Origin: a virus | Taxonomy: Duplodnaviria > Caudoviricetes | IMG/VR virus record: IMGVR_UViG_3300021387_000688 | Direction: 5' to 3' (one strand) | DNA length: 64,000 nucleotides | Part shown: positions 2,471 through 53,634 of the stretch, piece after piece | Position numbering within the stretch: position 1 is the stretch's first letter | How the letters are laid out: each line of letters opens with the position of its first letter | Program-made: the position numbers and the translations under genes | The notes under the pieces: generated by a model | The model's input: only the letters and a program-made list of their open reading frames with translations | The model's database searches: none | Told to the model about the DNA's origin: nothing

Positions 2471-2878
2471 CTAATCTCCGTAAGTAATATTAGGTGCCCA
2501 AGTTTTTTCTTCGAAAGGTTCATCACCCCATTTGACGCCTGGGTTTTGTTTCTTTGTAGGGAATGGATCATCCCCATATTTGATTCCAGGAGTCATAGAT
2601 TTCTCTGGGAAAGATTCTCCATATTTAATGCCTGGCTTATGTACACCGTTTTCTCCGCCTTTTGCATCCCAAGAAGCGAAAGCAGCTTTTCTTCTTCTAT
2701 TACGAATATTGCCACCATCGTTAAATTCATCATTCTCTTCGTATTCAAAAGGTTCTTCTACATCTTCTCTTAAGGCGTTTTCTTTTAGATATTCTTCTTC
2801 CCAATCATAGTCATTTTCAGCTTCTTTAAAAGAATATTCTTGAGTTAAACGTTCTATATCTTTTTGTAAATCACTCAT
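2471..2878 (-). CDS. Acidic protein with four ~16-aa PGIKYGD-type repeats
   Basis: KPGIKYGE / TPGIKYGD / NPGVKWGD / APNITYGD; CTAATT motif 6 nt before ATG. Confidence 0.65.
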   Translation of the reverse strand: MSDLQKDIERLTQEYSFKEAENDYDWEEEYLKENALREDVEEPFEYEENDEFNDGGNIRNRRRKAAFASWDAKGGENGVHKPGIKYGESFPEKSMTPGIKYGDDPFPTKKQNPGVKWGDEPFEEKTWAPNITYGD

Positions 2879-2893
2879 AAACTTAATTAGTAA

Positions 2894-3898
2894 CTACTTT
2901 AGTATCTCAATAATCCTTACGCCGAAGTTTTCATCTAATACAACTACTTCACCTTTTGCAATAGTTTTTCCATTGCATGTAATGTCACAAGGTTCTCCTG
3001 CCAACTTATCGAGTTCGATAATTGTACCTTCTCCCATTTTTGAGATTTCTTTCAATGTTTTAGAAGCGGAACCCAATTTAACTTCTATTGGCAACTTAGT
3101 ATCCATTAAAGGATTTAATCCAATATCTTTAGGGGCGGTTTTAATTTCTTTTTCTCCGTTAATTTCTTTCATAAGTTTTTTTATTATCCTCCAATCAAAT
3201 CCTATATTAAAAAATCCTTCTGATGTAGATTTCTCATCAACCTCTGCACGAAATTCGAAAGTTAATAAGCAATACATTTGGCCCATTTCTAATGGAGACT
3301 TATCTGAATGGTAAGGGTCATCAAAATATTTGATTTTATTTATAGTAGGTGTTTTTAAGTTTTCATAAGAACTGAATGATTTCTTCAACAAACGAAGAAT
3401 AGGATGGAGTACAAGTTTATTATACTTTTTAACTTCTGTAGAAGTAAGTACTCTATTTGTCATTTTAGCTTCAGTTGGTTTACCTTTTGACAAAACAGGA
3501 GGATTATGAATTCCGCACAGATCAAAAACTATAAAAGGATCAATTGAAACAATCATTTCTTGATTATTAAAGTTGCAAACAGTAAAAGGAGAGGGGCAAG
3601 GAAAACTTCTTATACATTCTTCATAGGTTAGTTGATCTACAGAATCTATATGAATATGCACATTGTCTTTTCCATATTGTTTAGAATTAAATAAAAGAGA
3701 TAACTTTTTGGCAAAAAGTTCCCCGATATTAGATACTCTCCTTAATTCTTCTCGAGAAAATCTATCGGGCCTTTTGAAATCGTATATTTTAATTTTTCTA
3801 CGACGATGTTCGTCCATCTCTTCATGATCGTCGTCTCCTGAAGATATTGCTTTCAATAATTGATCTATTTCTGCTTGAGATAATGGTTCTGATCCCAT
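2894..3898 (-). CDS. fliM: Flagellar motor switch-like protein: FliM N-terminal and middle domains fused to a FliN/FliY-type SpoA domain
   Basis: [10 protein letters not shown] CheY-binding peptide, [19 protein letters not shown] (FliM); C-terminal [15 protein letters not shown]...[17 protein letters not shown] (FliN/FliY). Confidence 0.9.
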
Positions 3899-3925
3899 CT
3901 TTTACACTCCTACTTATAATATAGA

Positions 3926-3949
3926 AAAGCCTTCCACTAGGAAGGCTTT
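3926..3949 (-). terminator. Intrinsic terminator abutting the FliM promoter
   Basis: AAAGCCTTCC-ACTA-GGAAGGCTTT; CTATATT at 3918-3924. Confidence 0.7.
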
Positions 3950-3969
3950 ACTTAAAAGTAAATTAAAAA

Positions 3970-4389
3970 TTACTCCTCTTCTGTTTCATCTTCAAGGTCT
4001 TCATCCTCGGCTTCGATTTCTTCCTCTTCTTCAGGTTCTTCACGAACTGGGGCATCTACTGGATTACCTTCTAACGCAGCTTTGAATTCATCTACGAACA
4101 ATACTGTGTCGTCAAGGTCCATATCCAATTCTGCATATTCACCTGCCCAAGCTTCAATCTTATCTCCCTGACTATCTTTTGCAGTAATCTCATAGGCTTC
4201 CGGGTCCATTGTAAACTCAAAATTCAATTCTGCTTTACCGCAATCTGCAAACCAGTTTACGGCAGAGTTGGAAAGTCTCTGTACAGTTATATCTTCTCTT
4301 CCTAGTTCGTTAAGGAAGTTCAATACCCTTGCTCTCATCTTGGCATTGTAGTTACCTAAGCGCGCTTCCTGTATACGTTCTTTTCTCAT
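3970..4389 (-). CDS. Acidic hypothetical protein, possible head-internal protein
   Basis: 139 aa, MRKERIQEA leader, AGGAG SD, CTAATT at 4410-4415. Confidence 0.6.
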   Translation of the reverse strand: MRKERIQEARLGNYNAKMRARVLNFLNELGREDITVQRLSNSAVNWFADCGKAELNFEFTMDPEAYEITAKDSQGDKIEAWAGEYAELDMDLDDTVLFVDEFKAALEGNPVDAPVREEPEEEEEIEAEDEDLEDETEEE

Positions 4390-10601: not shown

Positions 10602-10629
10602 GCTTATAATATAGAAAAATTAAAGAACG

Positions 10630-37614: not shown

Positions 37615-38008
37615 TGGAGATGCCGAGAATTGAACTCGGGTCCCATACAACCTTTTACAAATAAACTTCTATACAAGCTTAAGCTAGTTTTCGATTCGGG
37701 ATAGCTACCGGATTCTGCCCAAGTACGTGACTTTTACAAGCCACTTTCGTAAAGAGATACATGCTCTCGCTCCGCCTCTACTCTTTACTAGTCATCGCAA
37801 TCTTTCAAGTATATAAGCTATTGTGACTCGTTCACTTAAAACCCGCTAGAGCTCTGTTTTGGCTCTAGAACTTGAAATGGTGCTTACGCAACCATTGCCA
37901 AGTCTTCGTACTCTGTTTCGTCGTTTACTTACGGTGCTTTTAGGGTACACTAACCACTGTGCTTGATTTATCTGTTACTGAGTTGCAGGTCGAAACCTTT
38001 ACACCCCC
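37615..38008 (-). ncRNA. ssrA: tmRNA, predicted tag (A)DETEYEDLAMVA*
   Basis: 5' GGGGGTG pairs with 3' CATCTCC-A (G3-U alanine determinant); T-arm CCGAG-TTCAATT-CTCGG; helix 2 pairings; tag frame 37922-37884 preceded by TAAAC; CCA not encoded. Confidence 0.95.
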
Positions 38009-38517: not shown

Positions 38518-38537
38518 GTATTTGTTCCTCCTATTAT

Positions 38538-38567
38538 AATATAGAAAATTCCGGAGGAACAAATTTC
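38538..38567 (-). promoter_or_regulatory. Class A promoter GAAATT-N18-TATATT
   Basis: Exact motif and spacing. Confidence 0.7.
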
Positions 38568-43132: not shown

Positions 43133-43161
43133 ATAAATAATATAGAAACTTGGGCAAAAGA

Positions 43162-53597: not shown

Positions 53598-53634
53598 AAA
53601 TACCTCTTGTTTATAATATAGAAATTTTAGAGGG

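Follow-up and report, generated by a model that had tools for sequence, protein, structure and literature searches.

What would a tailed phage do with a part of the bacterial flagellar switch? The question is raised by IMG/VR record IMGVR_UViG_3300021387_000688 (Duplodnaviria; Caudoviricetes), of which one stretch of 64,000 nucleotides, here called the window, was analysed. At 2894-3898 it carries a gene for a FliM-like protein of 334 aa. This protein joins a FliM-type N-terminal peptide, of the kind that binds phosphorylated CheY (CheY-P), and a FliM-type middle domain to a single C-terminal SpoA domain of apparent FliN/FliY type, and it has lost the GGxG loop. The reading we favour, and to which we give about an even chance, is that this would be a phage-made, CheY-P-binding switch subunit that pairs with the host FliM C-terminal domain (FliM-C), with FliY/FliN or with itself, is uncoupled from FliG and re-programmes switching or export. 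The gene and the parts of its product are as follows.

2894..3898, minus strand: coding sequence of the FliM-like protein, stop codon included (334 aa, ATG start, from the list of open reading frames, ORFs)
3839..3889, minus strand: CheY-P-binding-type peptide, residues 4-20, core 6-15, consensus LSQxEIDxLL (binding predicted from sequence)
3764..3796, minus strand: segment containing KIYDFKRPD, residues 35-45, better conserved than any other segment in the family
3149..3784, minus strand: FliM-type middle domain, approximately residues 39-250 (PF02154, AlphaFold2, Foldseek)
3455..3523, minus strand: variable loop at the GGxG position, residues 126-148, beginning DLCGIHN (alignment A1)
2900..3115, minus strand: FliN/FliY-type SpoA domain, residues 262-333 (TIGR02480)

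The reading frame is intact. Pfam placed FliM (PF02154) at residues 39-182 (E 3e-18) and FliMN_C (PF01052) at residues 264-333 (E 3e-22). Among 8000 candidates scored, 6980 were homologues at E ≤ 0.001, and 13430 representative clusters matched at the same threshold; as such scores go, the FliM-like match is far beyond chance. The short motifs were located at residues 6-15 (peptide core), 126-132 (DLCGIHN), 299-303 (LAGEP) and 316-329 (FliN/FliY-type C-terminal segment). An AlphaFold2 model had a mean pLDDT (predicted local distance difference test) of 76, with about 85-93 in the middle domain, and contained a predicted helix at residues 8-19. Foldseek searches with this model returned the FliM middle domains of H. 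pylori and T. maritima with target template modelling (TM) scores of 0.77-0.86, and also Salmonella FliM in cryo-electron microscopy (cryo-EM) C-rings, and FliN. The FliM peptide and the FliM middle domain named in a preliminary description of this DNA were thus both recovered, the former read at residues 6-15 and the latter by PF02154 and Foldseek. In the peptide, L6, E10 and L15 were invariant in alignment A1 (23 sequences); in alignment A3, which holds 30 members of the same short type (FliM N-terminus, middle domain and one FliN-type SpoA domain), L6 and L15 were invariant and E10, I11, L14 and I18 were at least 90% conserved. Seven residues of the KIYDFKRPD motif were invariant (I38, Y39, D40, F41, R43, P44 and D45).

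The middle domain departs from FliM at one site. DLCGIHN aligned exactly where GGxG-bearing relatives have GGSGE, GGTGE or GGEPD (alignment A1, in which these comparison sequences are FliM-FliN fusions of 420-465 aa, one of them annotated as a Treponema FliM), and T. bryantii FliM has GGRG at this loop. The earlier statement that DLCGIHN replaces the FliG-contacting loop is therefore borne out by the placement of the loop in A1. FliM touches the EHPQR motif of FliG through the GGXG motif of its middle domain (PMC6700473). Set against the FliM-FliN fusions in A1, the phage protein is also missing about 100 residues that correspond to FliM-C. Since both the GGxG loop and the FliM-type C-domain are gone, the protein would be unable to take FliM's place under FliG.

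We then compared the C-terminal SpoA domain with both candidate types. Residues 262-333 scored 92 bits on TIGR02480 (fliN), which has a curated cut-off of 84.05 bits, and the whole protein scored 110.5 bits on TIGR01397 (fliM), half the equivalog cut-off of 219.6 bits. The T. bryantii controls behaved as expected: FliM scored 403.5 bits on TIGR01397 without a fliN hit, and the C-terminus of FliY scored 101.6 bits on TIGR02480. The best PDB sequence match of the phage C-terminus was T. maritima FliN (1O6A, E 1e-20), and no FliM C-domain was found among its PDB sequence matches. In a trimmed alignment the domain shared 54-64% identity with the C-domains of FliY/FliN, against 11-26% with those of FliM. 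A SpoA tree built from 75 columns placed canonical FliM-C in a clade of its own (98/98) on a long branch and the window domain within the FliN-type cluster. Approximately unbiased (AU) tests on this tree did not reject a FliM-C stem attached next to the phage domain (p 0.56 and 0.75), a result that we treated as uninformative because the long stem of FliM-C joins the tree at an unresolved star. As the 75-column tree is not decisive, the C-terminal type was assigned from the cut-offs of the hidden Markov models (HMMs) and from the identities, and on these the domain is classed as FliN/FliY-type and not FliM-type. The preliminary description had called it so; the domain-wise phylogeny keeps FliM-C apart and the window domain in the FliN cluster, and the AU tests permit the other attachment.

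Residues L68, A93, V113 and D116 of Salmonella FliN are reported contacts of CheY-P, and V111-113 of FliH (PMC6700473). In the alignment of the 1O6A match they map to L275, A300, V318-320 and E323 of the phage protein, each of them either conserved or carrying a conservative substitution. A lone SpoA domain requires another SpoA to pair with, as has been established for FliN and for FliM-C (PMC6700473). We propose that the N-terminal peptide of the phage protein would bind phosphorylated CheY, and that its one FliN-type SpoA domain, probably unstable alone, would pair with host FliM-C, host FliY/FliN or a second copy while retaining the residues of the hydrophobic patch by which FliN engages FliH and CheY-P. 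The subunit would then occupy FliN/FliY positions or stay soluble, the signal would not be passed to FliG, and switching, possibly together with FliH-dependent flagellar export, would be re-programmed during infection. We infer all of these binding events and the phenotype, starting from an observed architecture, conservation pattern, phage carriage and purifying selection.

The conservation pattern is uneven along the protein. Mean identity of the short-type clade to the window protein was 68% in the N-peptide, 86% in the KIYDFKRPD motif and 61% in the SpoA domain, and it was 29-38% in the middle domain and 19% in loop residues 128-148; across the clade, the span between the conserved P121 and N148 varied from 13 to 56 residues. 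Selection thus appears to guard those regions whose counterparts in FliM and FliN bind CheY-P and form the C-ring base or dock to it, and not the FliG-contact site.

The host is most likely a spirochaete, Treponema-like. This is inferred because the best cellular relatives are almost all Spirochaetota and because residues 4-22 are identical at 16 of 19 positions to the N-terminus of T. bryantii FliM (manual count). In a one-genome-per-species scan the best 80 loci came almost only from Spirochaetota (Treponema including T. bryantii, and metagenome-assembled genomes, MAGs, from rumen and gut), with 27-34% full-length identity. All 80 were canonical fliM-fliY pairs except L007:5761-7074 (Spirochaetales MAG SUG2154), where an orphan 437-aa FliM-like protein with two LxQDEIDxLL peptide copies and a FliN-type C-terminus lies between an outer-membrane-protein gene and hisG. 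Of the infection of a spirochaete that had been claimed, the Treponema affinity of the nearest cellular relatives stands, and a spirochaete host is probable. Spirochaete flagella are periplasmic. Exclusion of superinfecting flagellotropic phages was considered as a function and dropped, as spirochaete flagella are not exposed as receptors.

We asked whether the gene truly belongs to the phage. The window encodes QueC, ThyX, several homing endonucleases, a NUDIX protein, a radical-SAM protein and a BRCT/ligase-like protein, and most ORFs have no family. There were no housekeeping families among the recognised window families and no virion genes in the window, and two large window ORFs had no match in known phages (tblastn). 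The genes on either side of the FliM-like gene are conserved neighbours.

2471..2878, minus strand: downstream gene for an acidic protein of 135 aa, starting 15 nt past the stop codon of the FliM-like gene
3970..4389, minus strand: upstream gene for a protein of 139 aa

The homologue P0002 (49% identical) lies in the same gene order on metagenomic contigs of 14-43 kb, the shared order being radical SAM, MazG-like, FliM-like and a 134-aa acidic gene. When window 2471-4389 was compared with L001:9207-11464, from a related phage contig, the flanking genes were 74-78% identical (78% for the downstream gene, and 74% over 112 residues for the upstream gene) and the FliM-like gene about 50%. An 11.6-kb contig from an independent DNA sample spans the locus. 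The FliM-like gene has a GC content of 31.8% and a GC content at third codon positions (GC3) of 21.8%, like the neighbouring phage genes, and T. bryantii fliM has 41.6% and 33%; judged by these values its composition is ameliorated to the phage. Against the 93%-identical variant L114 the ratio of nonsynonymous to synonymous substitution rates (dN/dS) was 0.11 with a dS of 0.33, with comparably low values for the peptide, the middle domain and the SpoA domain, a signature of purifying selection that indicates a gene functional in the phage lineage. Window content, synteny in the related contig and phage-like composition all agree with the earlier description of a gene lying among phage genes.

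The same observations bear on a less flattering explanation, namely that a bacterial fliM fragment entered the assembly or that the gene is a recent, functionless capture on its way to decay. Phage databases do contain bacterial fliM fragments, and the PhiMa05 record has been questioned as a possible one (PMC13623518). However, the same gene order in a diverged phage, the independent 11.6-kb contig across the locus, the dN/dS of 0.11, a GC3 of 22% like that of the neighbours against 33% in T. bryantii fliM, and the intact frame largely refute this explanation, and we regard it as very improbable.

By these comparisons the FliM-like gene diverges much faster than its neighbours, despite a dN/dS of 0.11 between close variants, and such fast divergence relative to the flanking genes would fit a host-interaction gene. 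In a sheep-gut metatranscriptome, contigs about 94% alike covered the whole gene in run X19 and part of it in run X20 of the same study, DNA carry-over being possible in both; the gene was not covered in RNA run X18.

Does the gene have counterparts in other phages? A single-protein scan of IMG/VR gave no match, and an alignment-based scan found four viral contigs. In three of these records (G005, G006 and G007) a FliM-FliN fusion lies directly beside a full-length FliG. One of them, G005 (UViG_3300010167_000010), is a genome of 329,018 bp with direct terminal repeats that CheckV rates 100% complete. At L093:6689-9293 it encodes a 404-aa FliG and a 465-aa FliM-FliN fusion with an intact GGxG whose gene overlaps the end of the FliG gene. 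About 270 kb away, at L115:1495-2349, it encodes a 284-aa flagellin, flanked by a homing-endonuclease-like gene, which from its N-terminus we take to be of FlaB type. The fourth record, G008 (UViG_3300009093_000034; 305,833 bp, direct terminal repeats, rated complete), carries a short-type FliM-like gene. At L096:7983-9121 this gene is divided between two overlapping ORFs of 225 and 155 aa, which may reflect a frameshift, programmed frameshifting or an error in sequencing; GroEL is encoded 1.5 kb upstream of it. None of the four viral records yielded Terminase_6N, which has no bearing on whether they are viral. The search of other phages for the fusion that the preliminary description had called for therefore returned the short type in huge phages and FliG with a full FliM-FliN fusion in others. 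On these sequences the carriage of switch proteins is recurrent in huge phages, in at least two designs.

Several other candidate precedents were rejected. The fliM of MaAM05/PhiMa05 lies in a MotA-MotB-FliL-FliM-FliY cluster of a questioned record, which, a published critique argues, may be bacterial DNA purified along with the phage (PMC13623518). The Listeria and Salmonella 'phage' records, which we read as bacterial fragments, are short and align with no more than part of the query, and the match in MT835480 is limited to the SpoA domain. In PHROGs the phage protein had no meaningful hit.

The FliG-bearing genomes bring in a second explanation, that the phage protein is a working stand-in for FliY/FliN at the C-ring base that keeps the periplasmic motor and export running as host expression declines, much as the psbA carried by cyanophages sustains photosynthesis. 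Working motors keep turning over their FliM and FliN (PMC6700473). The domain order of the phage protein parallels that of FliY and its FliN patch residues are intact, and the sets of FliG and FliM-FliN fusion in other huge phages, with the FlaB-like flagellin of the 329-kb genome, point the same way. But without GGxG and FliM-C it could not replace FliM, without a detectable CheC phosphatase domain it is not a true FliY, and its middle domain evolves fast (29-38% identity within the clade), unlike the slow canonical FliM branch. Such maintenance of the motor is possible, though we think it unlikely.

We next considered relatives of the protein in bacteria. A census of 256 retrieved relatives, with genomic contexts sampled for some members, contained about 80 of the short architecture and about 100 FliM-FliN fusions with GGxG, and others with FliN-type domains at both ends. 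Among short-type members, P0002, P0043/P0270 (on a 592-kb contig), P0005 and P0012 have phage-like contexts, P0010 a mixed one, and P0020, P0031 and the orphan L007 bacterial ones, the first two of these beside PcfJ-like genes. One variant of this last kind is the roughly 500-aa P0097 (L090:1737-3248), in which the FliM peptide and middle domain are enclosed by a FliN-type SpoA domain on either side; its contig also carries Fic and two-component genes, and the related cluster P0090 has 66 members. The chromosome of T. bryantii XBD1002 encodes at least four FliM-like paralogs that lack GGxG and have two SpoA domains apiece.

L110:8609-9787: first T. bryantii paralog
L111:8543-9703: second T. 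bryantii paralog
L112:8854-10239: third T. bryantii paralog
L113:8434-9804: fourth T. bryantii paralog

In a middle-domain tree the phage protein fell in the starred short-type clade (Shimodaira-Hasegawa-like approximate likelihood ratio test, SH-aLRT, 97), which was weakly sister (75) to the L110 and L111 paralogs and apart from a tight canonical FliM group (93). Nearly every genome of the T. bryantii family had a match (120 of 121); 112 of the 121 had at most two, mostly FliM and FliY, and nine had three or more at E ≤ 1e-10. No relative above 35% full-length identity was found in these 121 genomes. As far as sequences tell, then, the short architecture exists in bacteria and is not a standard host gene. 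It had been asked whether the same fusion is a normal host chromosomal gene: the bacterial contigs and the two-SpoA paralogs speak for this in part, and the absence of any relative above 35% identity from the 121 genomes speaks against it. The idea of a one-off chimera did not survive, as about 80 metagenomic proteins have the same architecture. An origin of the chimera within this phage was dropped in view of the same architecture on bacterial contigs and in several phage lineages, and most likely the phage acquired the chimera ready-made.

These bacterial loci suggest a third explanation, in which the family works away from the motor as an adaptor for a CheY-like receiver or another partner, in regulation or in conflict between element and host, and the phage copy acts, for example, as a decoy. 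Short-type relatives lie beside PcfJ-like genes on bacterial contigs (L087/L088, L121). One T. bryantii paralog adjoins genes for a PcfJ-like protein, for an AAA ATPase that resembles IetA and for a WYL regulator. In two others an N-terminal stretch reads, by eye, like an XRE-type helix-turn-helix (HTH), and one of these two sits amid housekeeping genes, between znuA/truB and ruvA. Yet the peptide hardly differs from that of genuine FliM, the SpoA domain shares 54-64% identity with those of motor FliY/FliN and keeps their contact residues, PADLOC finds no defence family for the phage protein, and Pfam finds no PcfJ or AAA partner among 43 window ORFs. We consider a role away from the motor improbable for the phage protein.

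Two further observations concern the same loci. PcfJ-like genes recur just upstream of FliM-like genes on bacterial contigs (L087/L088:487-4534, L121:1214-4264, L110:8609-14914), sometimes with AAA or AAA_5 ATPases and DUF2201, and the arrangement could represent a module, as yet unrecognised, of defence islands or mobile elements. Beside one T. bryantii paralog, a 391-aa gene at L110:7343-8518 has no Pfam family and an internal VLSQEEIDLLLTAIADGE peptide, a CheY-binding-type motif outside any FliM context.

Several points weigh against a CheY-P-binding subunit that re-programmes the switch. Loss of GGxG speaks against canonical FliG binding, other contact with FliG being possible. The FliG and GGxG-bearing FliM-FliN fusions of huge phages, with a FlaB-like flagellin in one, look like rebuilding and not blocking. 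Bacterial members at non-flagellar loci, with PcfJ-like and AAA neighbours and the HTH-like fusion, hint at roles away from the motor. Transcription is attested by contigs from RNA libraries alone, which is weak evidence. The hijack of the flagellar switch put forward in the preliminary description thus fits the architecture, conservation and phage carriage, and the FliG/FlaB sets elsewhere keep maintenance of the motor a live rival to it.

A wider proposal, which we offer tentatively, would be that huge phages infecting spirochaetes possess a modular set of flagellar tools with which they control the periplasmic motor. Its parts would be FliG, FliM-FliN fusions and FlaB-type flagellin in some phages and GGxG-less FliM-FliN-type proteins in others, and the short form would be a competitive subunit for CheY-P, FliN-FliY and FliH sites that leaves FliG uncoupled. 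On that proposal no earlier viral protein is known that acts on the bacterial switch complex within the cell, and this one would be the first. Should it bind CheY-P and the C-ring base but not FliG, it would offer a natural dominant means of dissecting switching and the function of FliY/FliN, most useful in spirochaetes, in which motor control is poorly understood, and huge gut phages would be seen to manage host motility. A full-text literature search found no description of a phage-encoded FliM, FliN or FliG, and none of the GGxG-less T. bryantii paralogs; the moose-rumen phage W30-1 has been remarked, at pathway level, to be enriched in flagellar-assembly genes (PMC12484599). What appears new is a host-derived phage gene of the FliM/FliN superfamily with a distinctive, selected architecture. 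The comparison also exposed an uncharacterised GGxG-less FliM-like family in Treponema genomes and a complete huge-phage genome encoding FliG, a FliM-FliN fusion and a flagellin.

The signals upstream of the gene were located by a consensus scan and from the sequence.

3907..3949, minus strand: upstream signals of the FliM-like gene
3949-3926, minus strand: terminator-like hairpin before the gene
3924-3918, minus strand: CTATATT element
3911-3907, minus strand: AGGAG Shine-Dalgarno sequence, with the ATG at 3898

The gene had been described as isolated, with its own CTATATT element and Shine-Dalgarno sequence, and this holds: both lie upstream of it, and there is no other flagellar gene in the window. 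Pfam found no flagellar families among 43 window ORFs and no FliG in the window, and HMMs built from the family found no second FliM or SpoA gene in any window frame. The sequence TCTATATTA has five copies in the window, all on the minus strand (3917-3925, 10607-10615, 38537-38545, 43138-43146 and 53614-53622). The copies that were compared with the ORF list fall between ORFs and just upstream of minus-strand genes, which fits a candidate phage promoter element; statistical support for the recurrence is weak because 10 of 100 shuffles also reached five matches. The downstream 135-aa gene is probably co-transcribed with the FliM-like gene. Elsewhere in the window, ARAGORN called a transfer-messenger RNA (tmRNA) gene at 37615-38008 on the minus strand, with the unusual predicted tag peptide DETEYEDLAMVA.

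How does the protein compare with known switch components? With canonical FliM (T. bryantii FliM, L012:5998-7032; Salmonella FliM, 8UMD and 8WIW) it shares the peptide, the KIYDFKRPD segment and the middle fold, but it lacks GGxG and the FliM-type C-terminal SpoA domain, is only about 30-35% identical and lies outside a flagellar operon. With FliY (spirochaetes, Bacillus and Thermotoga; T. bryantii, L012:7028-8236; T. maritima, 4HYN) it shares the three-part order of a CheY-binding-type peptide, a middle domain of CheC/FliM fold and a FliN-type SpoA domain, the last being 62-64% identical to that of Treponema FliY. Unlike in FliY, the middle domain matches FliM (PF02154) and not CheC, for which Pfam gave no match in the phage protein at E up to 1, and there is no low-complexity linker; on NF005995 (FliY) the protein scored 106 against a cut-off of 218. 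Compared with FliN (TIGR02480; T. maritima, 1O6A/1YAB; Salmonella), the hydrophobic-patch residues and the CheY-P and FliH contact residues are conserved, but FliN stands alone whereas the phage SpoA domain is fused behind a FliM N-peptide and middle domain. The GGxG-less bacterial paralogs (T. bryantii L110-L113, L007, P0020 and P0031) have in common with it the peptide, a middle domain without GGxG and a FliN-like SpoA domain; those of T. bryantii differ in being chromosomal, in having two diverged SpoA domains and in reaching at most 35% identity to the phage protein. Finally, the FliG and FliM-FliN pairs of huge phages are likewise phage-borne and end in the same FliN-type domain, but they keep GGxG and FliM-C and adjoin a full FliG.

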